Assembly (NCBI GenBank): GCA_027457185.1
Contig: DAIDTN010000136.1
Location: 1-35,188 of the forward strand
Length of the DNA stretch: 35,188 nt
Direction of reading: 5' to 3'
Source of the DNA: Burkholderiales bacterium
Lineage (GTDB): Bacteria; Pseudomonadota; Gammaproteobacteria; Burkholderiales; SG8-39
The notes beneath the pieces were generated by a model, which saw only the letters and a list, made by a program, of their open reading frames with translations, searched no databases and was not told the origin of the DNA. Of the stretch, positions 14,369 to 33,265 are shown piece by piece. The position numbers and the translations under genes are program-made. The stretch's first letter is position 1; every line of letters starts with the position of its first letter.

Positions 14369-14655
14369 GCTGCGATGGCCTCCAGCCCCAAAGCCTGCAA
14401 CATCGGCTGCGTTTGGCTGAGTGCGCCGACAATGCGTCGAGGGGGGAACGGCGCGAGCTTGACCAGCGTCGGCGTCATGAAGATGCCGTCGGCCAGCGCG
14501 CGCCCCGGTTCCTGGAATACATACACGACTTCGATTTCGTGCCGTTCCGGAAGGTGTGTCCGGCAAAGCGCCGTGAGGTTGGCAAGCGCCTGCACGGAGT
14601 TGAGCGCGTCGCCCGCGACATAGAGCCGGAACTTGAACTTCGTGCGTCGACTCAT
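14365..14655 (-). CDS. kaiB: circadian clock protein KaiB homologue
   Basis: 96 aa. FKFRLYVAGDALNSVQALANL.. / ..DGIFMTPTLVKLAPFPPRRIVGALS aligns with cyanobacterial KaiB (LKLYVAGNTPNSVRAL.. / ILATPTLAKVLPLPVRRIIGDLS). Its ATG overlaps the kaiC TGA, and its TGA overlaps the next ATG. Confidence 0.9.
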   Translation of the reverse strand: MSRRTKFKFRLYVAGDALNSVQALANLTALCRTHLPERHEIEVVYVFQEPGRALADGIFMTPTLVKLAPFPPRRIVGALSQTQPMLQALGLEAIAA

Positions 14656-16397
14656 GGTCGGCTCGCTTTCCGCCCCGGAATCGCCGCATCGGCGCCGCGC
14701 AACTCCTTCATCTGGGTGCGGCCGCGCGACAACTCGCCCTTATCGCTTTGCGTGGTGCGCACCAGCAAGGCTTTCTCCACCTGCTTCGCCACGAGTTCGG
14801 TCTGCAGCGACTTCAGTCGCACATTGAGTTCGGCCTCCTCGGCATCGAGTTTGACGCGCTTCAGCTTCGCGGCGACTTCCGCGGCCTCGTGCACGCCGCG
14901 CTCGGCGCGTTCCTTTTCCCAGCGCAGCGTGCCCATCAACACCTCGCCGCCCGCGGTGTAGGTGTCGGCCAGGGTCACGCCGGCGTCGCTCAGGATCAGC
15001 TCGCGCACTTGGTTCGAATGCGTCGTGCCGCGGGACTTGACGATGGACAGACCGCGGTTGCGTTCACCGGCCTGTATCAGGTAATTGAGGTGGATCCAGG
15101 TGTCCACCAGCGCCGAGATCTGCAGCTGCGAGCCGCCTTCCCCCTGGCCGGACATCTCGTCGAGCAGGCTGGTGCAGACCAGGGTGGTGCCTTCGCCCTT
15201 GGACCAGTCGATCAGGCGGTCCGCCACGCTCTGCGTGCTCAGGTCGTTGCCGGACTTGGACCAGGCGGACACCGGATCGATCACCACGCAGCGGGCCCGA
15301 TGCTCTTTCGCCAGCGCCTTGATGCGCACCAGATAGGTCTCGGCGCTGCCGGTGATGGCGCGGGCCGAGATCATGCGCAGGCACCCGCTTGCGACGTAAC
15401 GATCCAGATGGATGCCGACGGAGAGCAGGTTGCGGATCACTTCGGTACTGTTCGTATCGAAGCAGACGAACATGGTGCGCTAGCCGCGGCGGCAGGCCGC
15501 TTCGGCGAACGCACCGCTCAGGGTCGTCTTGGCCGTGCCGGAGAAGCCGGTGATGAGTACGCTGGCGCCGCGATAGTAGCCGCCGCCGAGCATGGTGTCG
15601 AGCCGCGCGACGCCGCTGGACACGCGCTCGTTGCTCACCTTGGCATCGACGCGGCTCAGCGTGTGCGCGACGGCGACCTCGAATCCGCTGTTGCCGATCA
15701 GGAATGCCGACTCATTCTCATCGAAGCCGGAGCCGCGATACTTCTGCACGCGCAGACTGCGTTGCGACACGCCCAGCACCACGCTGTGGTTGAGGATCAC
15801 GGCGCAGTCCACCATGAATTGCATGAAGCCGAACGGCTGCTGGCTGATCGGGCTGGTATCGTCCGCTCCGGACTTGAGGGTAATGACGCCCGTCAGTTCG
15901 TGCGCCAGTAACCACGCATGCAGCCGGTAGATCTCGCGCCTTTCCGCCGCCGTGTCGGGCAAGAGCGCCAAGACGACGTCCAGCGCATCGAACACGATGC
16001 GCTTCGCCCCCATTTCCCGGGTCTTGACCTCCAGCGCCGCCAGCATCCCGCCCAGATCGAAGTCCCCGGACTGGACCAGGTCGGGCAGCGGCTGGGCGTC
16101 CATGAAAAAGAGCTTGTTCCGCCGCAATTCCGGAAGTTTCCAGCCGAAGCTGTCCGCATTGGCCGCGATGCGCTTCGAGCTCTCCTCGAACGCGACGAAT
16201 ATTCCCGGCTCCTTGCACGCGCGCGCGCCATGCGCCAGGAACTGCAGCGCGAGCACGGTCTTGCCCGAACCCGGTCCGCCCACCAGCAGCGTGGTGCGGC
16301 CGTGCGGCAAGCCGCCGCCGGTGATTTCATCGAAACCGGCGATGCCGGTCGGCGCCTTAATCGGCGTTTTCACGAGTGGCGAACGGACCGATTTCAT
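14652..16397 (-). pseudogene. kaiC: KaiC-like double-domain ATPase (KaiC2-type with long C-terminal coiled-coil tail), interrupted by one in-frame TAG at 15480-15482
   Basis: One reading frame is split into track ORFs 15480..16673 (true ATG at 16397, GGGAGG Shine-Dalgarno upstream) and 14652..15473. The CI domain has GGPGSGKT, FVAFEES and RIVFDALD. The CII domain has GFSGTAKT, then ..AACRRG*RTMFVCFDTNS.., RCVVIDPVSA and QISALVDTWIHLNY..VKSRGTTHSNQVREL. The tail is about 90 aa of heptad-like sequence (EKERAERGVHEAAEVAAKLKRVKLDAEEAELNVRLKSLQTELVAKQVEK). I cannot decide from the sequence whether it is a pseudogene, a sequence error or a read-through gene. Confidence 0.85.
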
Positions 16398-16540
16398 CTT
16401 GCCTCCCGGCGAAACACTGGAACGGTCCCAGAGGCGGCCCACGCGGGATGATTCGCGGAAGGGGCGAGAAGGACCGGCGGCGAGGGAAATGGCCGTGGTT
16501 CCCCTCCTTCTGGCAGTGTCCCCCCTTTTCACCGTAGCGG

Positions 16541-16560
16541 TATGTGCGCTAGCCCACATA
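16541..16560 (+). repeat. intergenic palindromic element, copy 8 (TATGTGCGCTAGCCCACATA)
   Basis: Near-perfect 20-bp palindrome about 145-165 nt upstream of the kaiC ATG. It has the same TATGTGCGC left arm as the other copies. Confidence 0.55.
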
Positions 16561-16706
16561 GAACGCCGCTGCACTCCGCTGCCCGCGGCAGAGCCCAGTA
16601 AGCAGGACCTGATCATTGCGGCAGGCACCGCTTTGTTCAACCCATGGCCGAATATTTGGCTGACTCGAACCAAAGCCGGGCGCGGCTATGCGCGGCACTT
16701 TGCCCT

Positions 16707-16740
16707 TATGCGCGCCAGCGCACGGAAAGCACCGAGCGCG
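16707..16740 (+). repeat. intergenic palindromic element, copy 5 (TATGCGCGCCAGCGCACGGAAAGCACCGAGCGCG)
   Basis: Same core, 83-116 nt upstream of the ATG at 16823. A degenerate half copy (CTATGCGCGGCAC) lies just upstream at 16686. Confidence 0.55.
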
Positions 16741-16822
16741 GGAAGCACAATCAGCGCAGCGATCGAGGCCCTGCGGTAACGCCGTTACCGACTTGGGTTT
16801 AGAGACCACGAAGAGAGGCGAA

Positions 16823-17260
16823 ATGAAGACGCAAACGAACAGGCTTCTGCATCGGCCTTTGTTGGTCGGAAGCGTTGCGGCGATCTTGATCAGCGGCATT
16901 GCCATTGCCTCCGTTGCGATCTCGGCCCAGAGCTTTGACGGCGTCCTCGCAGGCGCGCCGCCGGCCGATACGTCCGCGCTGCACACCATCGCGGCAGCCG
17001 CCGGCCATGTCTACAGCTGTCCCGATTGCGGGGTGATCGAGTCGACGCGGGACATTGGAGGTCCCGGCGAAAAGACCGAAGTCGGCGCGTCCGATCGGAG
17101 TGCGGCCGGCAAGCGCGCCGAAATCGAGGCGAAGCCCATGCGGAACTACGAAATCACCATTCGCATGCAGGACGGATCCATGCGCGTGATCAAGGACCCC
17201 AGATCGGCGCGATGGCGGCAGGGGGAGCCGGTAACCGTCATAGCCGGCGTGGATCAATGA
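16823..17260 (+). CDS. hypothetical membrane-anchored protein with CxxC motif
   Basis: 145 aa from the ATG at 16823 (GAGAGG Shine-Dalgarno). It starts MKTQTNRLLHRPLLVGSVAAILISGIAIASVAI (TM anchor), then has CPDCGVIES and a beta-rich tail (YEITIRMQDGSMRVIKD..WRQGEPVTVIAG). The stop overlaps the next ATG (ATGA). I cannot name a family with confidence. Confidence 0.6.
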   Translation: MKTQTNRLLHRPLLVGSVAAILISGIAIASVAISAQSFDGVLAGAPPADTSALHTIAAAAGHVYSCPDCGVIESTRDIGGPGEKTEVGASDRSAAGKRAEIEAKPMRNYEITIRMQDGSMRVIKDPRSARWRQGEPVTVIAGVDQ

Positions 17261-18426
17261 GTTCGGCATCCGGCGAGGCCGTCAAGGAGATTGCGTCCGA
17301 TCCGGCTGTCGCCGCCGCGGAAGCAGTCGCGCTGGGGGATCGCCGGCGCAACACCAGTATGAGCCTGGCCATGAGCGTTCTGGCGGCCATCGCGTTGGTC
17401 GCCGCACTGTACCTGGCGCGCGCATTCTTCGTGCCCTTGCTGATCGGCATTCTGGGAAGCTACGCGCTGCGCCCGCTGGTCGACTGGCTCGAGGCGCATT
17501 ACATTCCGCGAGCTGCGGGCGCAGCGTTGGTGCTGTTCACCTTGGTCGGCGGACTATTGTGGGTGGGCTATTCCCTGAGAGACGATGCCGCAGCGATGAT
17601 CGAAAAGCTGCCCGAGGCCGCGCGCAAATTTCGACAGACAATGACCGACGCGCGCGCCGGCGGCAGGACGCCGCTGCAGAACATTCAGGAGGCCGCCAAC
17701 GAGATTCAGGGGGCCACGGCGGAGGCCGCACTGAGGCCGGGGAGGCGGCTTGCCGCGGTTAGCGCGCCGGAGCCTTCCGTTTGGCTGCGCGACTATGCGA
17801 TCGCGCAGTCGCGTCTGCTGATCAGCGTTGCGGCGCAGGCGCCGATCGTGCTGTTGCTCGCCTATTTCCTGCTGGCTTCCGGAGTGCATTTCCGGCGCAA
17901 GCTGGTGCAGTTCGTCGGTCCTTCGCTGTCGCGCAAGAAGGACGCCGTGCGGATTCTCGAACAAATCGACGTGCAGGTTCAGCGCTACCTGCTCACGATG
18001 CTCCTGTCTAATACTCTTGTCGCAATTGGCACCTGGCTCGCGTTCGAGGCGCTCGGCGTGGAGAATGCCGGCGTCTGGGGCGCTGCAGCGGGCGTGCTGC
18101 ATTTCATCCCCTATCTGGGCTCGGCGCTGATGGTGCTCGGAAGCGGGGTCGCCGCCTTTCTCCAGTTTGGATCGGCACTGCATGCGCTGAGCATCGCCGG
18201 CGCGGCGCTGCTGGTCGCGGGCGCGATTGGCCATTTGTTCATGACCTGGCTGCAGAGCCGGGCCGCGCGCGTGAATGCCGCCGTGCTGTTCATCGCCTTG
18301 CTGTTCTTCGGCTGGCTGTGGGGCATCTGGGGGCTGTTGCTCGGCGCGCCGCTGGTTGCGATCGTCAAAGTGGTCTGCGACCGCGTCGAAACGCTCAAAC
18401 CAGTCGGTGAACTGCTTGGGCGCTAA
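17257..18426 (+). CDS. AI-2E family transporter (PerM/UPF0118)
   Basis: 389 aa and multi-TM. The C-terminal ..LFFGWLWGIWGLLLGAPLVAIVKVVCD.. is the family hallmark. The start is set to the ATG at 17257, which overlaps the upstream stop. A later Met (MSLAMSV) is possible. Confidence 0.8.
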   Translation: MSSASGEAVKEIASDPAVAAAEAVALGDRRRNTSMSLAMSVLAAIALVAALYLARAFFVPLLIGILGSYALRPLVDWLEAHYIPRAAGAALVLFTLVGGLLWVGYSLRDDAAAMIEKLPEAARKFRQTMTDARAGGRTPLQNIQEAANEIQGATAEAALRPGRRLAAVSAPEPSVWLRDYAIAQSRLLISVAAQAPIVLLLAYFLLASGVHFRRKLVQFVGPSLSRKKDAVRILEQIDVQVQRYLLTMLLSNTLVAIGTWLAFEALGVENAGVWGAAAGVLHFIPYLGSALMVLGSGVAAFLQFGSALHALSIAGAALLVAGAIGHLFMTWLQSRAARVNAAVLFIALLFFGWLWGIWGLLLGAPLVAIVKVVCDRVETLKPVGELLGR

Positions 18427-18433
18427 TGTCTGC

Positions 18434-18459
18434 TATGTGCGCGGGCAGACAGACCACGG
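18434..18459 (+). repeat. intergenic palindromic element, copy 6, degenerate (TATGTGCGCGGGCAGACAGACCACGG)
   Basis: The left arm is intact and the right arm is degenerate (GCAGACA instead of GCGCACA). It lies 8 nt after the AI-2E stop and about 100-125 nt upstream of the lipoprotein ATG. Confidence 0.45.
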
Positions 18460-18560
18460 TATGCATACACCCTAAGCTGCGACATCCGCGGCAAGGGGCA
18501 AGCACCGCTTGCGCGATGCCGGTCTTCCATCAACCAGATTTTCGATTTAGAGGCGACCAA

Positions 18561-18779
18561 ATGAAAACGATACGGAAATATTCAATCAGCGCAGTTGCTG
18601 CAGCACTCTTGATCGGCCTGGGCGGTTGTGCCGGGATGTCACGGCAGGACCAGGGCACTGCCACAGGTGCCGTCGTAGGTGGCGTCGCGGGTAATGTCCT
18701 CGGCGGCGGCCTTCTTGGAACGGCGGCCGGAGCGGCGGTCGGCGGCGTCATCGGTCACGAGGTCACCCGGCCGAAGTAG
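18561..18779 (+). CDS. glycine-zipper lipoprotein (OsmB-like)
   Basis: 72 aa starting MKTIRKYSISAVAAALLIGLGGC (lipobox), followed by a Gly-zipper (GAVVGGVAGNVLGGGLLGTAAGAAVGGVIG). The start was moved from the track's 18426 to 18561. Confidence 0.8.
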   Translation: MKTIRKYSISAVAAALLIGLGGCAGMSRQDQGTATGAVVGGVAGNVLGGGLLGTAAGAAVGGVIGHEVTRPK

Positions 18780-18956
18780 CAACGCGCCGTATAATGAGGT
18801 GATTCAAACGGGAAGGGTCCCACGCCTTCCGCGGTCTTTCAGGCTACCCTGGGTCAGCTCTCGTTTCGGCAATTCCGAAGCGGGCCTTTTGAGTTGCTTG
18901 TGGCAAGGCGTGCTTGACGCGTCTTGTCGCTACTTCTTCCATGTTGAGGAAGCGAG

Positions 18957-19658
18957 ATGCAGCTGCCGGTCGCGAAATTCCTGTTGATGCTGGCATTGGC
19001 GCTCGCTGCGCCGGCAGCGTTTGCGCAAGACCTTGCGCCGGACGCGCTGCTGCGGTCGGTCTCGGCGGGGGGAATCGACAAAATCAAGCAGGAGCAGGAC
19101 CTCCACGCAGCGAGCCCGGCGAATATCGCGGCCCTGGTCGAAACCAGGATCGTGCCCCTGTTCGATTTCGTTCGCATGACGCGGCTTGCCATGGCACGCA
19201 ACTGGCGTCTGACCACGCCCGAGCAGCAGGCGTCGCTCACGGCGGAGTTCAAGATCATGCTGGTGCGGGCTTATTCCACTGCGCTCGCGCAATACCGCGG
19301 CGAGACCGTCGAATTCAAGCACCTGCGCGCCACGCCGCTCGATACCGAGGTGACGGTCAGGTCGGAGGTCAAACAACCCGGGAACGAACGCATGATCCTG
19401 AACTACGAGATGGAGAAGACGCCGGCGGGATGGAAGATCTACGACGTCGATGTTGCGGGAGTGCGCCTGGTTACGACCTATCGGGAGGTCTTCGCCGAAG
19501 AGGTGCGCGCTGGCGGCGTAAATGGCCTGATTAAATTCCTCGCTGACGGCAATCGGGAGGGCGGGTCGAGATTCAACTCCATCAAGGCCTCGTTTTGGGA
19601 AAAGTGCCGGGTCGTATATGCGATCTTCCAGAATGTATTTCGGCGCGGCGGGCAATAG
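18957..19658 (+). CDS. mlaC: MlaC/Ttg2D-family phospholipid-binding periplasmic protein
   Basis: Signal peptide LALALAAPAAFAQD. ..IVPLFDFVRMTRLAMARNWRLTTPEQQASLTAEFKIMLVRAYSTAL.. and ..GWKIYDVDVAGVRLVTTYREVF.. are typical Ttg2D motifs. GAGGAAG Shine-Dalgarno. Confidence 0.8.
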   Translation: MQLPVAKFLLMLALALAAPAAFAQDLAPDALLRSVSAGGIDKIKQEQDLHAASPANIAALVETRIVPLFDFVRMTRLAMARNWRLTTPEQQASLTAEFKIMLVRAYSTALAQYRGETVEFKHLRATPLDTEVTVRSEVKQPGNERMILNYEMEKTPAGWKIYDVDVAGVRLVTTYREVFAEEVRAGGVNGLIKFLADGNREGGSRFNSIKASFWEKCRVVYAIFQNVFRRGGQ

Positions 19659-19811
19659 AGCGCCGGGATCGCGGTTCTACTCACATCAAGGCGCTGAATC
19701 TGCGGCGGGCCGGCGCCGCCAAACACCGCAAATACGGCAGGCGCTTTGCATACGCGCTGAATGCAAGGCCAGGGAGGGACGCCGGCGATCGATCGAGCCG
19801 TGCCGACGGGC

Positions 19812-20513
19812 TCACACGGCTTCGTGCATGTCCCTGACAATTTCGTAGCACGAGCAGCAGGCGGCTTCCAGGCCTTTGCGATCGAGAATCGCGATATTGC
19901 CGCGGCTGTAGCTGATCAGGCCGTCCTGCTGCAACGTGCGCGCGGCCTTGGTGACGCCGACGCGCCGCACGCCCAGCATCTGCGAGAGGAATTCCTGAGT
20001 GAGCCGGAATGAACCTGATCGCACGCGATCGTGGGTCATCAGCAGCCAGCGCGCCAGACGTGCTTCGATAACGTGAAAGCGGTTGCACGCGGCCGTCTGC
20101 GTGATTTGCGTCATCAGGCTGTAGGTATAGCGATGCAACTCGCGCGTCAGTGCGTGGCTTTGCCGGAGCTGTTTGAGAAATGACGCCGCATTCATGCGCA
20201 TGGCTGTTCCGGTTCCCTGCACCAGCGCGCGCACCGGGGAAATGTTGATCTCCAGCGCGAGTGGTATGCCGACCACGCCTTCGCGGCCGACCAGGCCGAC
20301 TTCCAGCGCCTGGTGTCGGTCCACCAGCGTCAGCAGGGAGACAAGCGAGTCATTGGGAAAGTAGACGTGCTTAATTTGCTCCCCGGGTTCATACAGCACA
20401 TCGCCGTAGGTCAGCACCACCTGCTCCATGTCGTCGATCAGTTGCCGATAGTCTTTGCGCGGCAGCGCGGCGAGCAGGCAATTGGCTACGGCTTTTTTCT
20501 TCGCAATAGGCAT
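19812..20513 (-). CDS. Crp/Fnr family transcriptional regulator
   Basis: 233 aa from the ATG at 20513 (MPIAKKKAVANCLLAALP..). It has a cNMP-binding-like barrel (..YFPNDSLVSLL..GLVGREGVVG..) and a C-terminal HTH (LTQEFLSQMLGVRRVGVTKAARTLQQDGLISYSRG). Confidence 0.85.
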   Translation of the reverse strand: MPIAKKKAVANCLLAALPRKDYRQLIDDMEQVVLTYGDVLYEPGEQIKHVYFPNDSLVSLLTLVDRHQALEVGLVGREGVVGIPLALEINISPVRALVQGTGTAMRMNAASFLKQLRQSHALTRELHRYTYSLMTQITQTAACNRFHVIEARLARWLLMTHDRVRSGSFRLTQEFLSQMLGVRRVGVTKAARTLQQDGLISYSRGNIAILDRKGLEAACCSCYEIVRDMHEAV

Positions 20514-20728
20514 GGCGGCCTCGGGTGTTGTCGCGCTCCCATGAGCATCCTCATGGCGAAGCGCGACCGGTGGCACACGGAGGTGCACAGAACCAGATCC
20601 GATGTAGACAGCAGTCATCATTTGCCTTCAATTGGAACCCCGTGACGCAGCGCACGCGAAAAACGCGGCGCCAGGGCGCGGTGCGAAGACTCTGTAGCGG
20701 CAAAGACTACGGCAAACAATTTGCGCTG

Positions 20729-20756
20729 TATGTACGCCGGCGCACAGAGCCGGCGC
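20729..20756 (+). repeat. intergenic palindromic element, copy 7 (TATGTACGCCGGCGCACAGAGCCGGCGC)
   Basis: Lies in the divergent spacer between the Crp/Fnr gene and the lmo0937-family gene. It shares an extended flank with copy 2 (..CAA.C.G.CGGGGA..) and an upstream AAGACTACG-N17 with copy 1. Confidence 0.65.
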
Positions 20757-20901
20757 AAGCCGACGGGGAAAATTGCCCTCATTCACGCCATTCCTAAGGA
20801 AGGGGATGGACCCCCAATCCCGGCCGGAAACCGTCCAAAGCATGGTTTGTGCGCTTTGCCGATGCGGAGGTTTCGAATTCGACCACGAAAGGATAATAAG
20901 C

Positions 20902-21051
20902 ATGCTGTATACCATCGCCGTCGTTCTGATCATCCTGTGGCTCCTGGGGCTGGTGACTTCCTACACCATGGGCGGCTTCATTCACGTTCTGCTGGTCATC
21001 GCCATCGTTGTCGTCCTGCTCCGCGTTATAAGCGGGCGCAATCCCCTCTGA
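20902..21051 (+). CDS. lmo0937-family small membrane protein (49 aa)
   Basis: MLYTIAVVLIILWLLGLVTSYTMGGFIHVLLVIAIVVVLLRVISGRNPL is a near-textbook lmo0937-family sequence. An AAAGGA Shine-Dalgarno lies upstream. It is the real part of track ORF 20773..21051. Confidence 0.8.
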   Translation: MLYTIAVVLIILWLLGLVTSYTMGGFIHVLLVIAIVVVLLRVISGRNPL

Positions 21052-21122
21052 CCGCGGCGCCATTGGGCGTGTGCTTTTGGAAACTGCGTGCCGGCATCGT
21101 CCGGCGTAGAGAGGGACGATCC

Positions 21123-21695
21123 ATGCGGCCACCGCGCTCGGCTTTGGTTCCCCTGTTCCTGCTGCTAGCGCTTGCGACCCCCGCGTCGGCGCAGGACCAT
21201 GCGCGTGCCCGGACAGTTCCGCCTGCTTTCCCCGCGGGATTGGACCAGATCGTCTACAAAGGGCTGGTCGGCAATGTGCTCGACGCGGTTCCGATGGATG
21301 CTTCGGAACGCCTGGGCCTTCAGCGCGCCAACGCAGTCATAGGCAACACCTTATTTGGCCGGTCGCTGGCGATATTGGCAGGGTTGAGCAATCCCGTTCT
21401 GCTATTGGGGGGATTTGTCTGGGGCATTTGGGCGGCAGCCAATATCGCGCCGGTCAAGGCGGCGATGAAACGCGCGGTCGACCCGGACCAGTCCGGCGGC
21501 GGTGTTGCTGCGCCGGGGCGCGCGCTTGCGCTCTTCAATGTTTCCTCCGCCGTGACCGACACGCGCGCGAATGCGGCACCCGCGCCGGTTTTGTCGAGTT
21601 CGAATTCCGCCGGGGATCCAGGCGTTGCGGGCCCAGTACGTCCTCGCGTAATCAAGATATGGCTGCCGCAGCGCTCGCCTGCCCCGCTTCGATAG
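21123..21695 (+). CDS. hypothetical exported/membrane protein
   Basis: 190 aa with a GAGAGGGA Shine-Dalgarno. Signal peptide MRPPRSALVPLFLLLALATPASAQD, then a hydrophobic stretch (ILAGLSNPVLLLGGFVWGIWAAANI). I recognise no family. Confidence 0.5.
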   Translation: MRPPRSALVPLFLLLALATPASAQDHARARTVPPAFPAGLDQIVYKGLVGNVLDAVPMDASERLGLQRANAVIGNTLFGRSLAILAGLSNPVLLLGGFVWGIWAAANIAPVKAAMKRAVDPDQSGGGVAAPGRALALFNVSSAVTDTRANAAPAPVLSSSNSAGDPGVAGPVRPRVIKIWLPQRSPAPLR

Positions 21696-21939
21696 CTGCA
21701 AACGCATTGACCTTACCGACGGCGTGGCGGGGGGCAATGCCGAAACGTCCGCTCTGATCGCAAACGAATTCTTCCTATGGTCGTGAATTGGCCCCGCGTT
21801 CCGGCCAGATGAAACGGACAGGATGGGGCAGACATCGGCTCCCTGTGCGAAAATAAGCTCCCTGCCGCGGTAGCGCCTCGTTCGACGCCGACCGGGCCCG
21901 CAGCCAAATCCACCCTCGATCTGTTGTTCCCATCCGAAC

Positions 21940-23811
21940 ATGGCACATGGACATCATTCCGCCGCCTCAGCCGCCGACGCAGGGCCGCCCGTGTCCAGAG
22001 CGCGACCCAACGAATGGCGCGTGGTCGGCTTGCTGCTGCCCTACCTGTCGGAATATAAATGGCGGGTGCTGGTCGCTCTGATATTCCTCACCTCGGCCAA
22101 ACTCGCCAACGTCGGCGTGCCGCTGGTATTGAAGTCAGTCGTCGATGCGCTGTCGCCCGCGCAACAGGTGCTGGCGCTGCCGCTGGCGCTGCTGGTCGCC
22201 TATGGCGCGCTGCGCCTCTCGACCGTGCTGTTCGCCGAACTGCGCGACGTGGTATTCGTGCGGGTGACGCAGCGCGCCATCCGCCGCGTCGCGCTCACCG
22301 TGTTCCGCCATCTGCACAGCCTGAGCCTGCGCTTCCATCTGGATCGCCAGACCGGCGGCGTGTCGCGCGACATCTAGCGCGGCACGCGCGGCATTTCGAC
22401 GCTGCTGTCCTACATGCTGTTTTCCATCATTCCGGTGATCCTGGAATTCAGCCTGGTGGCGGTGGTGCTGCTGACCAAGTTCGACTGGCGCTTCGCCGCC
22501 GTCACCTTCGCCGCGGTCGCGATTTACATGTTTTTCACCGTCAGCGTCACCGAGTGGCGCATGGACATCCGCCGCCAGGCCAACGAGCTCGATTCGAAGG
22601 CCAACACCCGCGCCATCGACAGCCTGCTCAATTACGAGACCGTGAAATATTTCAACAACGAGGAGTACGAGGCGCGGCGCTACGACGACAACCTGCGCAA
22701 ATACGAATCGGCCGCGGTGAAAAACGAAATATCGCTCGGGCTGTTGAATGTCGGCCAGAGTTGTGTCATCGCGATCGCCGTGACGCTGCTGATGATCCTG
22801 GCGGCCGAGGGCGTGGTGAACAAGACGCTGACGCTGGGCGATCTGGTGCTGATCAACGGCCTGCTGATCCAGCTCTATATTCCGCTCAATTTTCTCGGCG
22901 TGGTGTACCGCGAGATCAAGCAGGCGCTGATCGACACCGACAGGATGTTCCGGCTGCTGGAGCAGAACCGGGAAATCCAGGACAGCCCCGACGCCTTGCC
23001 GCTCGCCTCGGGCAGCTGCTCGATTCGCTTCGAGCACGTGGATTTTTCCTACGATCCGAAGCGGCAGATCCTGTTCGACGTGTCGTTCGACGTGCCTGCG
23101 GGCAGCAAGGTCGCCGTGGTCGGGCACTCGGGCGCGGGCAAGTCCACGCTGGCGCGACTGCTGTACCGTTTCTATGACGTCAGCCGCGGCGCCATCGTCA
23201 TCAACGGTAGCGACATCCGCGCGCTGCAGCAATCCAGCCTGCGCGGTGCCATCGGCATCGTGCCGCAGGATACGGTGCTGTTCAACGACAGCATTTTCTA
23301 CAACATCCAGTGTGGCCGGCCCGAGGCGACGCGCGAGGAGGTGTTCGAAGCGGCGCGGACGGCGCATATCCATGAGTTCATCGAAAGCCTGCCCGACAAA
23401 TACGAGGCGCGGGTGGGCGAGCGCGGCCTGAAGCTCTCGGGCGGGGAAAAGCAGCGCGTCGCCATCGCGCGCGCCATCCTCAAGAATCCCGCCATCCTGA
23501 TTTTCGACGAAGCCACCTCGGCGCTCGATTCCGAGACGGAAAAATCGATTCAGGGCGAACTCGCGCGCATCGCCCAGGGGCATACCACGCTGGTGATCGC
23601 GCATCGCCTGTCCACCGTGATGGATGCGGACCAGATTCTGGTCATGGAGGCGGGGCGCATCATCGAGCGTGGCGGCCATCGCGAACTGCTGGAGCGCAAT
23701 GGCGCTTACGCCCAGATGTGGGCGCTGCAGCAGCAGGAGGAGTCGCAGCAGCAGCGGGCGAAAGTCGCGGACTTGCCGCCGACCATGGGCGTTCTTCAAA
23801 TTTCGCCTTAG
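21940..23811 (+). pseudogene. Atm1/HMT1-type ABC exporter (fused permease-ATPase), interrupted by one in-frame TAG at 22375-22377
   Basis: Track ORFs 21940..22377 and 22414..23811 are in the same frame, reading ..RFHLDRQTGGVSRDI*RGTRGISTLLSYMLFSIIPVILEF... The ..NYETVKYFNNEEYE.. motif is typical of the Atm1 family. The NBD is intact: GHSGAGKST, LSGGEKQR, ILIFDEATSALD, IAHRL. Confidence 0.85.
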
Positions 23812-23899
23812 GTAATACCCCTATCTTGTTATTTTTGCTTGCCAAATAAGAATCGAGCCGCTAGACTGCGCCGAACGCCTAATCTTGCCAGGGAGCGAC

Positions 23900-24823
23900 A
23901 TGCTGATATCCATACGCCCTATCCTGATCTGTGCCGGCCTGAGTCTGAGCTTGGCCAGCGTTGCCTACCCCGGCGAAGCCCTAGCGCGTCATCGCGCGGA
24001 AAGCGCCGCACATACGGCGCACAGGTTGTCGCTGCGCTCGGCGTCCGCGATCGTGCAGGACGCGGAAACCGGAGAGATTCTGTATGGCAAGAACGCGAAC
24101 ACGATAACGCCCATCGCCTCGATCACCAAGCTTATGACGGCGATGGTGATGCTGGACGCCGGAGTCGATCTCAATCAGGAGATCACCATATCGACCGCGG
24201 ACATGGATACGCTGCGCGGCACCCACTCGCGCCTGAAACCCGGCGCCACCCTGAGCCGCGACGAACTGCTGCGCCTGGCGCTGATGTCCTCGGAGAACCG
24301 CGCCGCCGCGGCCCTGGCGCGCACCACCTATCCGGGCGGCATCAAGCCGTTCCTGCGCGCGATGAATCAAAAGGCGCGGATGCTGGGCATGAACGATACC
24401 CACTTCGACGACGCCACCGGGCTCTCCGCCGCCAACGTGGCGAGCGCCGAGGATCTGGTCAAGATGGTGCGCGCCGCGCATCGCTACGCACTCATCCGCA
24501 AATACACCACTACGACCGGACACGAGGTCCGTGTTGCCGGCCGGCCACTGGCCTATCACAACACCGACCGGCTGGTGTCGAACGAAAGGTGGCACATAGG
24601 CCTGTCCAAGACCGGCTTCACCAATGATGCCGGCCACTGCCTGGTGCTGCAGGCGAAGCTGGCCGAGCGCCAGGTGATCATCGTGCTTCTGGATTCCTGG
24701 GGAAAATTCTCGCGCATCGGCGACGCCAACCGCATCAGGGCCTGGCTGGAAGCGAACGCCAGGCCGCATAACGCCGGCGTGCGCAGGGCAGCGCAAGATA
24801 CCGGCAGCCACGCGCCAGGCTGA
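23900..24823 (+). CDS. pbpG: D-alanyl-D-alanine endopeptidase (PbpG-like, peptidase S11)
   Basis: Signal peptide, then SITK (SxxK), SEN (SxN) and KTGFT (KTG) motifs. The ATG at 23900 has an AGGGAG Shine-Dalgarno. The track start at 23885 is a TTG. Confidence 0.8.
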   Translation: MLISIRPILICAGLSLSLASVAYPGEALARHRAESAAHTAHRLSLRSASAIVQDAETGEILYGKNANTITPIASITKLMTAMVMLDAGVDLNQEITISTADMDTLRGTHSRLKPGATLSRDELLRLALMSSENRAAAALARTTYPGGIKPFLRAMNQKARMLGMNDTHFDDATGLSAANVASAEDLVKMVRAAHRYALIRKYTTTTGHEVRVAGRPLAYHNTDRLVSNERWHIGLSKTGFTNDAGHCLVLQAKLAERQVIIVLLDSWGKFSRIGDANRIRAWLEANARPHNAGVRRAAQDTGSHAPG

Positions 24824-24984
24824 GGCCCGGGGGCGGCGTAGGGGCATCCGTAACGCAACGAGGGAACCCGGGTGGGATCGGCAGGGTTCCACCCCGACCT
24901 CGGCTCCTTGTGCTTGCCTGAGTCGGACCGCAGCAAAAAATGACGTTTGCTGCGGATTTCAAGCAATCTGCTGTCGAGGGACCG

Positions 24985-25971
24985 ATGGCACATCCGCAGC
25001 AGCGCCGAGACCTTGGGGTAGTTCGCTTCTACAATTTTCTGCCTGAAGCCACCTCCTTCCTGAGCGAGGTGCTGACCGGGCTGGCATTGCCGCGCAAGGC
25101 GCTGCCGCCGAAGTATTTCTACGACGCGCGCGGCTGCAGCCTGTTCGAACAGATCTGCGAACTGCCCGAGTACTATCCCACGCGCACCGAGCTCGCCATC
25201 ATGCGCGAGCATTCTGCCGCGATGGCGAAGTTCCTCGGCCCGGACTGCCAGCTGATCGAGTTCGGCAGCGGCTCGAGCCGAAAGACGAGCATCCTGATCG
25301 AACAACTGCGGCCACCGTTATACGTGCCCATCGATATCGCCGGCGAGGCGATGCAGGCGGCGGCTGCCGGCCTCGTTCAGGACTTTCCCTGGCTCAACAT
25401 CAACGGCGTGTGCGCCGACTACACCAGGGCGCTGACGCTACCGGTGTTCGTGGGCGTGCCGATCCGGAAAAAAGCGGTGTACTTCCCCGGGTCGACGATC
25501 GGCAATTTCACCCCGGAAGAGGCGATCGAATTCCTGCAGCTCGCCCGGCGCATGGTCGGCGCGGGCGGCGCGCTGCTGATCGGTGTCGACCTGAAAAAAG
25601 ACAAACCGGTGCTGGACGCCGCCTACAACGACGCGGCGGGCGTGACCGCCGCGTTCAACCTCAACTTGCTCGCGCGCATCAACCGCGAGCTGGGCGGGGA
25701 TTTCCAGCTGCAGCGATTTCGCCACCGGGCCTTCTACGACGAGGCCCTGGGCCGGATCGAGATGCACGTCGAAAGCCTGGCGGCGCAGTTCGTGCATGTA
25801 GGCGGCGAGCGCTTCAGCTTCGGCCAGGGCGAAACCATCCTTACCGAGATTTCCTGCAAGTACAGCGTGGATGAATTCCGCGCGGTGGCGCAACGCGCCG
25901 GCTTCGCGCCCGGTCATACCTGGACCGACGCCGCCAGACTGTTCAGCGTTCACGGGATGATCGCCGTCTAG
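24985..25971 (+). CDS. egtD: EgtD-like L-histidine N-alpha-methyltransferase (methyltransferase-33 family)
   Basis: ..LPPKYFYDARGCSLFEQICELPEYYPTRTE.., EFGSGSSRKT, FPGSTIGNFTPEEA, AAYNDAAGVTAAFNLNLLARINREL and ILTEISCKY match the EgtD family. I prefer the ATG at 24985 (GAGGGA Shine-Dalgarno) over the track's 24940, which has none. Confidence 0.7.
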   Translation: MAHPQQRRDLGVVRFYNFLPEATSFLSEVLTGLALPRKALPPKYFYDARGCSLFEQICELPEYYPTRTELAIMREHSAAMAKFLGPDCQLIEFGSGSSRKTSILIEQLRPPLYVPIDIAGEAMQAAAAGLVQDFPWLNINGVCADYTRALTLPVFVGVPIRKKAVYFPGSTIGNFTPEEAIEFLQLARRMVGAGGALLIGVDLKKDKPVLDAAYNDAAGVTAAFNLNLLARINRELGGDFQLQRFRHRAFYDEALGRIEMHVESLAAQFVHVGGERFSFGQGETILTEISCKYSVDEFRAVAQRAGFAPGHTWTDAARLFSVHGMIAV

Positions 25972-26062
25972 CGCCGTCCTAGGCGCTATAATTCGCGCAA
26001 AGGTCTGAATCCCAGCGCGTACGGGGTGCGGCTTCGCGCGCTGTTCGGAACAAAGGCAAAGC

Positions 26063-28621
26063 ATGCTATCGGGCACTAGATTCAATCTCGAGGTCAATCC
26101 GAAAATTCCGCAGAGGCTGGCGCGCCTGGAGGAGCTGGCCAACAATCTTTGGTACAGCTGGGACATCATGCCCACGCGGGCGCTGTTTTCGCGCCTGGAT
26201 CCGGTCTTGTGGAACACGGTGGGACACAGCCCCAAGGCCCTGCTCAAGCGTATCGATCAGCGGTGCCTGACCGACGCGGCCGAAGACAAGCTGTTTATCG
26301 ACAACTACAATCGCGTGCTTTCGGCATACGACAGCTATCATGGCGAGCAGACGCGCCGCGACGCCGCGGAGGCGCCGCTCGCGCAAACCGAGCTGGTTGC
26401 CTATTTCTGCGCAGAGTTCGGATTCCACGAAAGCCTGCCGATCTATTCGGGCGGCCTCGGCATACTTGCCGGCGATCACTGCAAGACCGCGAGCGACATG
26501 CGCCTGCCTTTCGTCGGCGTCGGGCTGCTCTACCGGCAGGGATATTTCTCCCAGACCATCGACAGCCACGGCAATCAAAGGGCTACCTACCTGGATTCGG
26601 ATTTCGAGGATCTGCCGATCACGCCGGTGCAGCGCGAGGACAGTTCCGAATTGAAAGTCGGCGTCGAGTTTCCCGGGCGCGAGGTGACGGCGAAAGTGTG
26701 GCGCGCGCGCGTCGGCAACGTGAACCTGTACCTGCTCGACACCGACATCGAGGAAAACACGGCGCACGACCGCAATATCGCGCACCAGCTCTACGGCGGC
26801 GATCGCACCACCCGCATTGAGCAGGAGATCGTGCTCGGCGTCGGCGGAGTGCGCGCGCTCGCCGCGCTCGGACTCAAGCCCACCGTCTGGCACATCAATG
26901 AAGGGCATGCGGCGTTCCTGATTCTGGAGCGCCTGCGCACCCTGGTGCACCAGGGCCTGGATTTTGCCGGTGCGCTAGAGGCAGTGGCATGCAACACGGC
27001 GTTTACCACCCACACACCAGTGCCCGCGGGACATGATCATTTCTCCGCGCAAATGTTGCTGCACTATTTTCAAGGCTATTGCGACGAGCTGGGGGTTCCC
27101 GGCGAACAGCTGCTGTCGCTCGGGATGGGGCCGGGCGCGAGCGAATTCAATATGACCACCCTGGCCGTGCGCGGCTCGCGCTTCCACAACGGAGTTTCCA
27201 AGATTCATGGCGGCGTTTCCGCGCGCATATTGGCGGACCTGTGGCCGCAGATTCCGCCGGAAGAAAATCCGATCACATCGATCACCAACGGCGTGCACGT
27301 GCCGACCTTCCTCTCGCCGGAATGGGCCGAAGCATTCGACCATTTCCTCGGTTACGGCTGGAGCCGCAGGCTGGGCGACCAGAGTTGCTGGGACCAGATC
27401 AACGAAGTGCCGGATCATGTTTTCTGGAGCACCCGCCAGCACCTGAAGTCGCAGTTGATGCACCTGGTGCGCTATCGCCTGCGCGAGCAGAACGCGCGCA
27501 ACCAGGGCAGCGAAGCGCACCTGGACCGTCTTCTGAGCCTGTGCGATCCGGACAACCCGACGGTGCTGATCATTGGCTTCGGCCGCCGCTTCGCGACCTA
27601 CAAGCGGGCGACGCTGCTGTTCGAGAATCTCGACTGGCTGCGTCAGTTGCTCGGCGATCCCTTGCGTCCGGTGCTGTTTCTGTTTGCCGGCAAGGCGCAC
27701 CCGGCCGACGTGCCCGGGCAGGACTTGATCAGGCGGGTGATGCAGGTGGCGCAGATGCCCGAGTTCGAAGGCAAGATACTGCTGATCGAAGGCTATGACC
27801 TGCGCCTCGGCCGGCGCATGGTTTCCGGCGTCGATGTCTGGCTCAACAATCCGGTGTACCCGCTCGAGGCCTCCGGCACCTCGGGTATGAAGGCGGCGAT
27901 GAATGGCGTAGTCAATCTGTCGGTGCTCGACGGCTGGTGGGGCGAAGGCTACGACGGCACCAACGGCTGGGCGATCAAACCGGCCGCTGCCGGCCTGGAC
28001 GAGGCGAGCCGGAATCGGGAGGAAGTGCGCACCTTGTACGAAATCCTGCAGGACCACGTCATTCCGCTTTACTACAAGCGCGAAAGCTGCGGCTACTCGC
28101 CCGAATGGGTGAAGCTGGCGAAGCGCTCCATCTCCAGCCTTATGCCGCGCTTCAATTCTGCGCGCATGCTGGGGGAATACGTCGCCAAATGCTATCTGCC
28201 GGCCGCGCGCCAGGGCCGGCTCTATGCCGAGAACCAGTTCGAGGTCGCGCGCTCGATTGCCGCCTGGAAGTCGCGCGTGCGCCGGGCTTGGCCGGGGGTG
28301 ACGATACGCAGGCTGGATATGCCGAAGAAGCGCATCGACTTCGGCGACAGCGTGCGCATCGAAGCAACGCTGAGTTTGAACCACTTGAATCCGGAAGACG
28401 TGGCGGTGGAACTGCTGATGAGTCGTATCGGCGCGCCGGACGAAGAAGAGACGACGAGCTACCGCTTCGTCGCGCAAGGCGCCGATGCAAGTGGCGAGCA
28501 CCATTTTGTTCTGGAGCTCGCGCCGGAGCTGTGCGGAAGGCTGGATATGCGCATCCGCGCCTATCCCTGCCATGGGTCGCTGACCCATCCGCTCGAATTA
28601 GGGCTGATGATCTGGGCTTGA
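26063..28621 (+). CDS. glgP: alpha-glucan phosphorylase (GT35, DUF3417-type N-terminus)
   Basis: 852 aa with ..LANNLWYSWD.., YFCAEFGFHESLPIYSGGLGILAGDH, TNGVH and EASGTSGMKAAMNGV (PLP-Lys region). Confidence 0.9.
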   Translation: MLSGTRFNLEVNPKIPQRLARLEELANNLWYSWDIMPTRALFSRLDPVLWNTVGHSPKALLKRIDQRCLTDAAEDKLFIDNYNRVLSAYDSYHGEQTRRDAAEAPLAQTELVAYFCAEFGFHESLPIYSGGLGILAGDHCKTASDMRLPFVGVGLLYRQGYFSQTIDSHGNQRATYLDSDFEDLPITPVQREDSSELKVGVEFPGREVTAKVWRARVGNVNLYLLDTDIEENTAHDRNIAHQLYGGDRTTRIEQEIVLGVGGVRALAALGLKPTVWHINEGHAAFLILERLRTLVHQGLDFAGALEAVACNTAFTTHTPVPAGHDHFSAQMLLHYFQGYCDELGVPGEQLLSLGMGPGASEFNMTTLAVRGSRFHNGVSKIHGGVSARILADLWPQIPPEENPITSITNGVHVPTFLSPEWAEAFDHFLGYGWSRRLGDQSCWDQINEVPDHVFWSTRQHLKSQLMHLVRYRLREQNARNQGSEAHLDRLLSLCDPDNPTVLIIGFGRRFATYKRATLLFENLDWLRQLLGDPLRPVLFLFAGKAHPADVPGQDLIRRVMQVAQMPEFEGKILLIEGYDLRLGRRMVSGVDVWLNNPVYPLEASGTSGMKAAMNGVVNLSVLDGWWGEGYDGTNGWAIKPAAAGLDEASRNREEVRTLYEILQDHVIPLYYKRESCGYSPEWVKLAKRSISSLMPRFNSARMLGEYVAKCYLPAARQGRLYAENQFEVARSIAAWKSRVRRAWPGVTIRRLDMPKKRIDFGDSVRIEATLSLNHLNPEDVAVELLMSRIGAPDEEETTSYRFVAQGADASGEHHFVLELAPELCGRLDMRIRAYPCHGSLTHPLELGLMIWA

Positions 28622-28713
28622 ATACCGGCTGGGCCGCGCTTGGCGCGTGCCCCGGCGCAGCCGCAACGCAAGGTGGAGCGATGCGCAATATTAATCCGCG
28701 GTTGAACGATGGC

Positions 28714-30207
28714 TTACCGGCCCTGAGCCAGCCCTGCGTAAATTCCGGCGTAGCGGCGCGCGCTCGCGTTCCAGCCGAAATCCCTCGCCATGCCGTTCCG
28801 CTGCAGCGCGGGCCAGGTCGCGCCTTCGCGCCAGACGCTCGCCGCGCGTGCTACCGCGGCGAGCAGCGCCGCGGCACTGGGCTCGCAAAAAACGAACCCA
28901 CTGGCGCTGCCGTCGGCGAGCGTAGCCGGATTGCAGTCGACGACTGTGTCGGCGAGTCCGCCGGTTGCGCGCACGATCGGCGGTGTGCCGTAGCGCTGGC
29001 TGTACATCTGGTTCATGCCGCAGGGCTCGAAGCGCGAGGGCATGAGGAAGGCGTCGGCGCCGGCTTCGATCAGGTGTGCAAGCGTTTCGTCAAAGCCGAT
29101 GGTCGCGCTCGCCGCGCGCGGATAGCTCTGCGCCAGCGCGGCAAAGCCGCGCTAGAGGCCGGGATCGCCGCTGCCGAGCAGCACCAGCTGTGCGGGCAGC
29201 GCCAGCAGCTGCGGTGCGATCTCGAGCAACCAATCGAGTCCTTTTTGCTCGGTGAGCCGGCTGACCACGGCAAACAGCGCCAACTCGGGCGTCGCCGCCA
29301 GACCGAGACGCCGCTGCAAGGCTTGTTTGTTGCCGGCCTTGGCGGCGAGCGTGTCGGCACTGTAGCGGCATTCGATCAAGGGATCGGTGGCCGGGTTCCA
29401 CAATCCGGTATCGATGCCGTTGAGTATGCCGTGGAGGCTGGCCTTGCGCGCGGTGAGCAATCCATGCAGGCCGAAGCCGAGGGTTTCGCTTTGGATTTCC
29501 AGCGCATAGCCCGGGCTGACGGTGCTGATCGCGTCGGCGAATTGCAGGCCGGCCTTCAGAAACGAAAGCTTGCCGTAATATTCGACACCGTCCGGTTGAA
29601 AGCTGTCGGGCGGGAGGCCGAGCGCGGCGACCACTTCCGGCCCGAATATCCCTTGAAACCCGAGATTGTGTATGGTCAGCAGCGTCGCCGCGCGCGCGCC
29701 AGAGGCGTGGTGCAGGTATGCCGGGGCGAGGCCGGTCTGCCACTAGTTGCAGTGGAGCACTTGCGGATACCATGCGAGCGGGCTGTCTGCGCTGCCAAGC
29801 AGCGCGGCGACGCGCGACAACAGGCCGAAGCGCAGTGCGTTGTCGCTCCAGTCGCTGCCGGTTTGATTCTGATAGGGTCCGCCGGGACGGTCATAGAATT
29901 CGGGGCAGTCGAGCAGGTACAGAGGTACGCCCGAGGTCGTATTTCCCTGGAGCAGTCTCGATGCCGGCAGGCCCGCGCTGGGCGCGAGGCGCGCAATCTC
30001 GCGGCACCCGGGCAACTGTGCGAGCACCACGCGGTAGCCCGGCAGCAGGATCCTGGCGTCGATGTCGAGCGCGACCAGCGCGGCGGGCAGGGCCGCACTG
30101 ACATCGCCGAGGCCGCCAGTTTTCACCAGTGGGGCGCATTCGGAGGTGGCGAACAGGACGCGCAGTGGGCTCGGGTTCGCGGCTGTAGCGGAAGTGGCGG
30201 GAGGCAT
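28714..30207 (-). pseudogene. glgA: glycogen synthase GlgA (GT5), interrupted by two in-frame TAGs (29743-29745 and 29152-29154)
   Basis: Three track ORFs (29743..30207, 29152..29634, 28714..29043) share one frame. The frame reads LRVLFATSECAPLVKTGGLGDV .. QVLHCN*WQTGLAPAYL .. TIHNLGFQG .. GILNGIDTGLWNP .. LLGSGDPGL*RGFAALAQSYP .. FLMPSRFEPCGMNQMYSQRYGTPPIVRATGGLADTV. There are no frameshifts. Confidence 0.85.
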
Positions 30208-30305
30208 GGAGGTGGATCGCGGCGCCGTCAGAAGGCATTGCTGAAGGGCGCAATATTAGCAGGGGTTCGGATTTCCGACCCAGTGCTCGCATTGCCTGGA
30301 TTGGC

Positions 30306-31292
30306 ATGATCCTCGCCGGCGACATCGGCGGAACCAAAGCGCTGCTCATGCTCGCGGCAGTGCGTCATGGCCGGCTGGCACCGCTCCTGGAGCGGCGCTA
30401 CGCTGTCGCCTCCTTTGCCGATTTTTCCGCCATGCTCACGCGCTTTGTCGATGAATGCCGCGCGCATCGTGGGCGCAAGACGCGCGTTGCCAGCGCTTGT
30501 TTCGGCGCAGCCGGGCCGGCGTCGGGCAATCGCATCCAAATGACCAACCTGCCCTGGCGTCTGGATGCCAGGGCAATCGCGGCGCAGTTCGGCATCGCCC
30601 GCGTGCTGCTGGTAAATGATTTCGCGGCCGCCGCCGCGGGAGTCGAAGCCCTGACCCCTGGCGACTGTGCGACGCTGCAGCGCGGCGAGCCCTTGCCTCA
30701 GGCAGCGCGCGTCGTGATCGGCGCGGGTACCGGCCTCGGCGTGGCGTATGCTCTGCCGCAGGCCAAGCGCTACCGCATCATCGCCGGAGAAGGCGGACAC
30801 GCCGGTTTCGCCCCCGCGGATGAGGAGCAGATGCGGCTGTGGCAGGCGCTGCACGCGCGCTTCGACCGCGTCAGCGCGGAGCACGTCGTTTCGGGACCGG
30901 GCCTGGTGCGCATCTACGAAATCCTGCGCACCGAGCTGCCCGAGGCGCCGGCATTGCGCGAGAGCGTGCGCACCGAAGGCGCAGCCGCGATCAGCCGCCA
31001 TGCCCTGGAACAAGGCGATCCGCTGGCCTGCCGGGCGCTGGACCTGTTCATCGCCTGTTACGGCGCGGCGGCAGGCGATCACGCTCTCGCCGTCACCGCG
31101 CGCGGCGGCGTCTATATCGCCGGCGGCATCGCGCGGAAAATCCTAAGCCGGCTCGCGGCCGGCGGTTTCATGGCGGCGTTTAACGCCCAGGGCGTGCATG
31201 CGCAGTTAAATCTCAGGGTTCCGGTGCAGGTGGTTACCACCGAGCGCCTCGGGCTGCTGGGTGCGGCGCTGATTGCGGCACGCGGCCAATAG
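30306..31292 (+). CDS. glk: glucokinase
   Basis: MILAGDIGGTKALL.. (ATP-binding DxGGT motif), ..NDFAAAAAGV.., GAGTGLGVA, GEGGHAGFAP and YIAGGIA are typical of Glk. Confidence 0.85.
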   Translation: MILAGDIGGTKALLMLAAVRHGRLAPLLERRYAVASFADFSAMLTRFVDECRAHRGRKTRVASACFGAAGPASGNRIQMTNLPWRLDARAIAAQFGIARVLLVNDFAAAAAGVEALTPGDCATLQRGEPLPQAARVVIGAGTGLGVAYALPQAKRYRIIAGEGGHAGFAPADEEQMRLWQALHARFDRVSAEHVVSGPGLVRIYEILRTELPEAPALRESVRTEGAAAISRHALEQGDPLACRALDLFIACYGAAAGDHALAVTARGGVYIAGGIARKILSRLAAGGFMAAFNAQGVHAQLNLRVPVQVVTTERLGLLGAALIAARGQ

Positions 31293-31406
31293 ACCCTGGA
31301 AATTTCGCGCCCCGGTCCCCAGGTGACATGATAATTGTCAATTGTCGGCCCGCCCTTGGCCGCTATGCTCTGATCGAGTGGTAACTGCACGAACAGGAGG
31401 TCGGCC

Positions 31407-31691
31407 ATGTCAAGCATACAGACACGTACACCGAGATCCAAGGCGGCGTCAAAGGCCACGCTACCGTCCAAGGCCCTGGCGCGTGCGCCGCTGGTCGCTG
31501 CAAAATCGAACAAGGGCAATGCGGAGGCCCGTCCGGGTTCGGCTCCGCCCCTTGATGCGCAGGAGCGCGACCGGCTGATTGCGCGGGCCGCATATTTCCG
31601 CGCCGAAAAGCGTGGCTTTGCCCCGGGCTGCGAGTTGCAGGACTGGATCGAGGCCGAGGCGGAAGTGCTGCGGCTGAGCGGCGGGCATTAG
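31407..31691 (+). CDS. DUF2934 domain protein
   Basis: 94 aa with a CAGGAGG Shine-Dalgarno. The N-terminal half is basic and low-complexity. The C-terminal RLIARAAYFRAEKRGFAPGCELQDWIEAEAEV is the DUF2934 signature. Confidence 0.7.
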   Translation: MSSIQTRTPRSKAASKATLPSKALARAPLVAAKSNKGNAEARPGSAPPLDAQERDRLIARAAYFRAEKRGFAPGCELQDWIEAEAEVLRLSGGH

Positions 31692-31751
31692 CGCCGCGCT
31701 GGGCGAGGCGCGGGTTCTAAGTCCGGCGCGAAAGAGTGGAGCTTAGGATCG

Positions 31752-33107: not shown

Positions 33108-33265
33108 AGGGATGCGCCAAGTGCGGGACGGGAACGAAGATGCTGCGCCGGTTTCCTCCGCCCCCTTGCATATTCCAGAAGCCGGAGGCGCTTGCGGGTG
33201 AAACAGCATGTGAACGTTGATCGGCGCCTGGCCGGTCCGGTCGCGTTTCAATTGGCGCCCTGCGG

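Follow-up and report, generated by a model that had tools for sequence, protein, structure and literature searches.

Known systems in which a stop codon is reassigned or suppressed include recoded phages (TAG to Gln), pyrrolysine, and some ciliates (TAA and TAG to Glu). With regard to guanine damage, a 1981 paper is said, to go by its title as quoted in the reference lists of the two papers cited next, to deal with GAG and GCG as base-substitution hotspots of a guanine-adduct mutagen. In a mutY strain of Pseudomonas aeruginosa, GC>TA changes occur mainly at GA sequences (PMC3676378), and lesion-forming agents can produce sharp hotspots of three bases in which G:C>T:A occurs at the 5' purine (PMC11603525). 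Here, we analyze a 35,188-nucleotide contig of an uncultured Burkholderiales bacterium (DAIDTN010000136.1, positions 1 to 35,188 of the forward strand; assembly GCA_027457185.1) in which four in-frame TAG codons interrupt three genes, namely kaiC, an Atm1-type ATP-binding cassette (ABC) exporter gene and the glycogen synthase gene glgA. The whole deposited contig, hereafter the window, has a G+C content of 64% and about 23 mapped genes, which are betaproteobacterial and Burkholderiales-like. Each of the four stops can be traced to a single, very recent G>T change within the tetranucleotide CGAG, and a fifth change of the same kind is synonymous.

The first TAG is found at codon 306 of kaiC (15480..15482; gene at 14652..16397, minus strand, 581 codons with read-through), between the residues AACRRG and RTMF. 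The ABC exporter gene (21940..23811, plus strand), which encodes ABC_membrane and ABC_tran domains, is interrupted at codon 146 in the numbering of the 623-residue product (22375..22377; between SRDI and RGTRGI), while glgA (28714..30207, minus strand, 497 codons with read-through) is hit twice, at codon 155 (29743..29745; between VLHCN and WQTG) and at codon 352 (29152..29154; between GSGDPGL and RGF). The ancestral codon is GAG in all four cases. The coordinates and frames given in a preliminary description of this DNA are correct, as is its statement that the genes are otherwise intact, with no further internal stop or frameshift present in any of the mapped window genes. Ordinary pseudogene decay, in which three dispensable genes would erode because selection is relaxed and mutation itself is nothing out of the ordinary, could draw on the double hit in glgA and on the plausible dispensability of kaiC, glgA and an Atm1-type exporter. 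It is nonetheless disfavoured and has in our view very little chance of being correct, given a single lesion type with no frameshift, TGA/TAA or insertion sequence element and, as detailed below, the confinement of all stops to GAG>TAG in one tetranucleotide context. The two other private substitutions of KaiC lie at variable positions, which likewise argues against decay. In the ABC exporter, a private substitution is found at 23311..23313 (plus strand), where the window has TGT (Cys) in the NIxYG motif of the nucleotide-binding domain and 79 of 80 relatives as well as the sister strain described below have Tyr. This TAT>TGT transition falls outside the G>T class, and a changed conserved residue in an interrupted gene is a further point that decay would accommodate.

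Five TAG-bounded fragments are present in a public protein collection (P0382, 305 residues; P0383, 273 residues; P0391, 465 residues; P0393, 154 residues; and P0380, 160 residues, which terminates at the codon-352 stop of glgA), all encoded on one deposited NCBI contig whose length is likewise exactly 35,188 bp. The stops therefore belong to the deposited record and were not added later, and the idea that the window had been edited after deposit was rejected on these grounds. Exact-product look-ups returned no other public assembly with any TAG-bounded fragment. This restriction to a single deposited contig is what would be expected of a consensus-level artefact, in which the T's would never have been present in cells and oxidised or depurinated guanines were copied as T, or base calling or polishing erred at CGAG. 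Candidate sources would be a low-complexity or low-coverage library, or a CGAG error arising, for example, beside a modified base. Oxidative damage in sequencing libraries classically shows up as G>T. We hold an artefact of this type to be possible, if rather doubtful, and return to it wherever the evidence bears on it. Related assemblies, too, have broken copies of genes from this region (P0390, P0392 and P0418): a 162-residue KaiC piece and a 542-residue, N-terminally short ABC piece are encoded on one 97,570-bp NCBI/ENA contig, and a 449-residue phosphorylase piece on a 118,356-bp contig.

Species-representative genomes were scanned with protein guidance, which yielded 80 loci. The best of them reach 93% identity in amino acids and about 86% in nucleotides, and synteny over the ABC-glgA region is seen in five. 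The kaiC site is Glu in 136 of 136 homologues, the ABC site is GAG or GAA in 78 of 78 aligned relatives and glgA codon 352 is Glu in 5 of 5 relatives. Codon 155 of glgA, given as Asp in the preliminary description, is instead Glu (GAG/GAA) in the sister strain and, among five relatives, in the closest three, with Asp found only in the two more distant ones. All four stops are therefore explained by single-step GAG>TAG changes. The sister assembly, GCA_009712145.1, was found via exact-protein look-ups and has 99.6-99.7% nucleotide identity to the window over about 20 kb, with VFSW01006234.1 spanning window positions 20309-34841 (99.6%) and VFSW01043345.1 spanning 11724-17337 (99.7%). Alignment to the closest relatives had been proposed as a check on the ancestral codon, and the answer is uniform: the sister strain has GAG at 4 of 4 TAG sites. 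Its orthologues are called intact, with kaiC encoding 581 residues (P0129, on contig L082), the ABC exporter gene 606 residues and glgA 497 residues (P0259). Each TAG therefore goes back to one G>T change that is very recent and confined to the window lineage. With N placed at the ABC site, a metagenome scan of DNA indexes from which the window's own contig seems to be masked recovered the sister contig, three relatives of about 85-88% identity and nothing else, and G is present in each of them.

The fact that each of the four stops takes the place of a conserved Glu codon, in genes that are otherwise intact and, in the case of KaiC, with the other private changes at variable positions, would also be in line with UAG being read as an amino acid, for example by a tRNA-Glu with anticodon CUA. 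In such a scenario, incipient amber suppression or capture of TAG by Glu would keep the three genes functional. We consider this highly improbable. The TAGs are absent from a sister strain of 99.6% identity and are thus not shared among close relatives, and the frame distribution, the numbers expected from drift and the terminator evidence presented below all count against it.

Further read data place the window strain in a second data set. Two Logan contigs from run SRR9320187, L088 (99.95% identity) and L089 (99.73%), have the window alleles at positions that distinguish the window from the sister, so that the window strain is present in independent read data; both contigs lie outside all five CGAG>CTAG sites. 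Look-ups of TAG-bounded fragments and neighbouring genes found no independent assembly covering a TAG site, and a literature search by assembly and run accession gave no hits. The left end of L088 is located at window position 30066, 3 bases from a strain-distinguishing single-nucleotide polymorphism at 30063. The position of this end suggests that SRR9320187 contains both strains, which split the unitig graph at variant sites. That a co-occurring, near-identical strain has intact genes is a further point in favor of an artefact.

The mutational context of the stops was analyzed by listing all 71 differences between the window and the sister and polarising them with outgroups, over 22,715 comparable positions. 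A fifth new CTAG was found at 21165..21168 (plus strand; change at 21167), within a plus-strand gene for a 190-residue secreted protein. Sister and outgroups have CTCG at this site, the change is a synonymous CTC>CTA (Leu) and, on the opposite strand, it is again CGAG>CTAG. A further in-frame stop at 21165 was considered and rejected, as the real gene runs on the plus strand and the codon is CTA. The synonymous nature of the fifth event means that the process is independent of the reading frame. CTAG was gained at 5 of 336 CGAG/CTCG sites, compared with G:C>T:A at 10 of 14,088 other G:C sites (Fisher P = 1.6e-5), while no reverse change from CTAG to CGAG or CTCG occurred among the comparable positions. 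Across all contexts, G:C>T:A changes number 15 in the window direction vs 5 in the opposite one, or 10 vs 5 when the CGAG events are left out.

Neither a longer motif nor a strand-specific process emerges around these sites. A search for a longer motif of the methylation or Type I-like kind around the five sites gave a best column with P = 0.0028 of 59, which is not significant once corrected. Strand-coordinated, kataegis-like damage was rejected because the five events fall on the two DNA strands in a ratio of 4:1, and for the 15 G:C>T:A events the ratio of coding to template strand is 8:7. A quasi-palindrome or enzymatic-fragmentation artefact perfecting an inverted repeat was likewise dismissed, the products being palindromic over just 4-6 bp. 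Confinement to one tetranucleotide context is typical of systematic errors and thus favors an artefact. On the other hand, 331 of 336 CGAG/CTCG sites are unchanged, including 42 CGAGCGC sites, so that an error would not be deterministic at the motif, and the lack of a longer shared motif around the five sites weighs in the same direction. Known methylation-linked nanopore errors, moreover, are mostly transitions.

CTAG is scarce in the window in general, with 17 observed vs 30.6 expected from trinucleotide frequencies (ratio 0.55), and the new events account for 5 of the 17. Two CTAGs, at 9256 and 9290, were tried as extra events and discarded, both being common to Logan contig L089. The CTAG at 1926 (GCT AGA, in a large glycosyltransferase-like gene; not polarised) might represent a sixth event.

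The distribution of the events over reading frames can be compared with the window-wide set of 490 CGAG/CTCG sites, of which 36.5% are NNC-GAG in frame (GAG>TAG), 13.7% would give TCG>TAG and about 40% would be synonymous. Four nonsense changes and one synonymous change fit a frame-blind draw from these classes (P = 0.19 for at least four nonsense changes in five), and at least four of five events at in-frame GAG codons have P = 0.06 under the same draw. Both the Glu and the CTAG at all four sites arise because G>T acts at CGAG in a genome rich in G+C at third codon positions (GC3), and no codon-aware process is needed for the all-Glu, all-CTAG pattern. The latter point also counts against suppression, since G>T at CGAG by itself puts all four stops at Glu codons, and the fifth event, which lies in a non-stop frame, together with the frame-blind distribution speaks further against it. 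It had been emphasized that all four changes create CTAG; this is true, however, as 59% of in-frame GAG codons are preceded by C, it is not significant at the codon level (P about 0.12) and is meaningful solely as mutational context. As to the CTAGCGC context pointed out at the same time, CGC does follow three of the four TAGs (P about 0.002 in a post hoc test). C after a stop codon is a weak termination context, and its presence after three of the four stops is a point that suppression could claim.

Selection appears to have left no mark on these changes. The 15 window-direction G:C>T:A changes consist of 4 stops, 7 non-synonymous and 4 synonymous changes, so that 11 of 15 (73%) are protein-altering, compared with 22 of 54 (41%) of the other coding differences (P = 0.04), among which 32 are synonymous vs 22 protein-changing. 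If 90% of nonsense changes were purged by selection, four nonsense changes among five events would have P about 6e-4. The G:C>T:A class thus looks unselected and close to unfiltered mutation. Neutral drift at this divergence would be expected to yield about 0.07-0.23 GAG>TAG changes, vs the 4 observed (P 1e-6 to 1e-4). Such an excess over drift, combined with the lack of selective filtering, points to a recent burst or an error. Nonsense changes apparently untouched by selection would also be expected if UAG were decoded, yet tolerance alone is insufficient, as drift predicts about 0.1-0.2 GAG>TAG changes and not four. For an artefact, a missing selection footprint is equally natural, errors being blind to function.

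The differences to near-identical strains also include clusters, located at 8344-8424, 13941-13991, 25935-25985, 26015-26042 and 34255-34276, with 5-6 substitutions per 50-80 bp plus a 3-base intergenic indel. They look like short recombination tracts or hypervariable patches and not like independent mutations. Indels relative to the sister are exclusively intergenic (25982-25985 and 31314), none being coding.

TAG remains a terminator in this strain. It ends 5 of the approximately 23 window genes, and relatives have TAG at the aligned terminator or, in the case of the ABC gene, TAA. The preliminary description had likewise stated that TAG still terminates; its count of eight TAG-ended genes is reduced to five by the gene map. 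Read-through past the terminal TAGs would add 12-471 codons, and 271 in the ABC gene, in agreement with the roughly 270 junk codons predicted earlier. The terminal TAG of this gene is a genuine terminator. No tRNA genes and no Rfam matches were found in the window. Wholesale reassignment, which had been excluded at the outset, stays excluded in view of the five TAG-ended genes, the TAG/TAA terminators in relatives and GAG in the 99.6% identical sister. A more restricted version would hold that the strain newly reads UAG as Glu via a suppressor tRNA, that a CGAG>CTAG bias turns GAG into TAG and that this is the first step of codon capture, with TAG still terminating elsewhere; we would give such a scenario only a slim chance. 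Context-dependent amber suppression, the third option raised in the preliminary description, is unsupported, as the process is frame-independent, neutral drift would yield far fewer events even if these were tolerated, and no suppressor tRNA is found in the window. The contig shows no new decoding of TAG and no new genetic code, and the kind of event is already known.

The other two options raised there both fit. Very recent G:C>T:A nonsense hits agree with a single G>T at CGAG, the synonymous fifth event and the unselected class of changes, and a systematic error at a motif fits the same evidence, as seen from consensus sequence alone. We favor true recent mutations stemming from a G>T burst of the guanine-lesion or MutY/MutM (GO) repair type with a CGAG hotspot, and assign this reading a probability of about 0.5. 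According to this model, a strand-symmetric, frame-blind point substitution would turn 5'-CGAG-3' into CTAG by G>T at the guanine of the GA step, with an unrepaired lesion of the 8-oxoguanine (8-oxoG) or adduct type being read as T. The source lineage may be GO-system (MutY/MutM)-deficient or an otherwise G:C>T:A-biased mutator. With NNC-GAG as the commonest placement of CGAG in GC3-rich genes (36.5%), about half of the hits would be nonsense. The products of kaiC, the ABC exporter gene and glgA would be truncated, TAG would not be decoded and the three genes would be dispensable. The second private hit in the ABC gene (Tyr>Cys) and the two hits in glgA are as expected of genes no longer constrained.

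The direction and single-step nature of the changes, their sequence context, their indifference to frame and the missing selection footprint are direct results of the comparisons above. We infer that the T alleles exist in the DNA of the cells and did not originate in library preparation or consensus calling, and a repair defect or lesion burst would be their probable cause. True alleles are supported by the clean consensus, which has no coding indels, unlike a noisy long-read consensus. A 35-kb short-read contig further implies a coverage at which random damage should lose the consensus vote. Both points likewise argue against an artefact.

Several observations weigh against true mutations. 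The T alleles are seen at the level of the assembled consensus, and of this genome the analysis covers the one contig. With nonsense changes in 3 of its roughly 23 genes, extrapolation to the whole genome would imply hundreds of knockouts, a heavy burden for a population whose abundance was sufficient to yield a 35-kb contig. This implied load, hard to reconcile with a living population, is at the same time a point for an artefact. To our knowledge, no repair defect as specific as CGAG, with 5 of 5 events having a 5' C, has been documented. Outside the CGAG events, the 10 vs 5 excess of G:C>T:A is not significant, the ratio of 7 non-synonymous to 3 synonymous changes is not significant either (P = 0.16), and several of these events sit in the recombination-like difference clusters. 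Finally, CGC follows 3 of the 5 CGAG>CTAG events (P about 0.007), a post hoc result that is unexplained.

Several other genes were mapped in the window. Mla lipid-transport genes form an operon (MlaF, MlaE-STAS, MCE and ABC_trans_aux), with mlaC (18957-19658) encoded apart from it. The MlaE permease (8454-9590, minus strand) carries an N-terminal STAS domain and has 378 residues, as in all close homologues. At 10421-16397 (minus strand), kaiC and kaiB (14365-14655, minus strand, after kaiC) are followed, with a short overlap, by a gene for a very large PAS/GAF/GGDEF/EAL protein. The long open reading frame of the latter (10421-14689) overlaps kaiB; its true start probably lies just past kaiB, matching its call on L082. 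The array looks like a KaiCB module coupled to cyclic di-GMP signalling in a non-photosynthetic betaproteobacterium. Genes for an AI-2E-family transporter, a Crp-family regulator, a D-Ala-D-Ala carboxypeptidase and an EgtD-like methyltransferase were also identified, and glgA itself is part of a glycogen cluster that further contains genes for alpha-glucan phosphorylase, glk, glgC and a GH57 enzyme.

Compared with known systems of stop reassignment or amber suppression, the window is similar in having in-frame TAGs at conserved positions, one aligned amino acid and otherwise intact genes. It differs in that five genes still end at a conserved TAG, even a strain of 99.6% identity lacks TAG at the four positions, one event falls in a non-stop frame and the window contains no cognate tRNA. 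There is also a likeness to 8-oxoG library artefacts and context-specific consensus errors: the changes are G>T/C>A only and context-dependent, they bear no relation to gene function or selection and they are absent from an independent, near-identical assembly. The artefact context of 8-oxoG is CCG>CAG, unlike the CGAG context found here. In addition, 8-oxoG artefacts normally stay at low fraction, so that a contig of 35 kb would not have them in its consensus, and no indel errors accompany the changes in the window. If the changes were nevertheless artefactual, a context-specific G>T error would have reached a deposited metagenome consensus, mimicking both pseudogenes and codon reassignment, which would matter for surveys that rely on such assemblies to identify alternative genetic codes or to estimate pseudogene loads. 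Explanations we have not thought of take up the remaining probability.

GO-system (MutY/MutM) mutators and guanine-adduct mutagenesis share with the window the G>T class and the preference for a G followed by A (PMC3676378). In GO-type mutators, frame-independent, unselected changes, including nonsense changes, accumulate as they do here, and the GAG>TAG amber mutation is their classic read-out. The window departs from them in a tighter context, 5 of 5 events having a 5' C and 3 of 5 then being followed by CGC, and in a G:C>T:A excess outside CGAG that is modest (10 vs 5). It also differs in its origin, as the source is an uncultured environmental Burkholderiales population, represented here by one contig, and not a laboratory or clinical mutator. 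If the T alleles are real, they would offer a useful case for studying how mutators erode dispensable genes in nature, in this contig those for a clock ATPase, a glycogen synthase and an exporter, and the source would be a natural population with an unselected G>T burst and a sharp CGAG hotspot, an environmental counterpart of laboratory GO-repair mutators.

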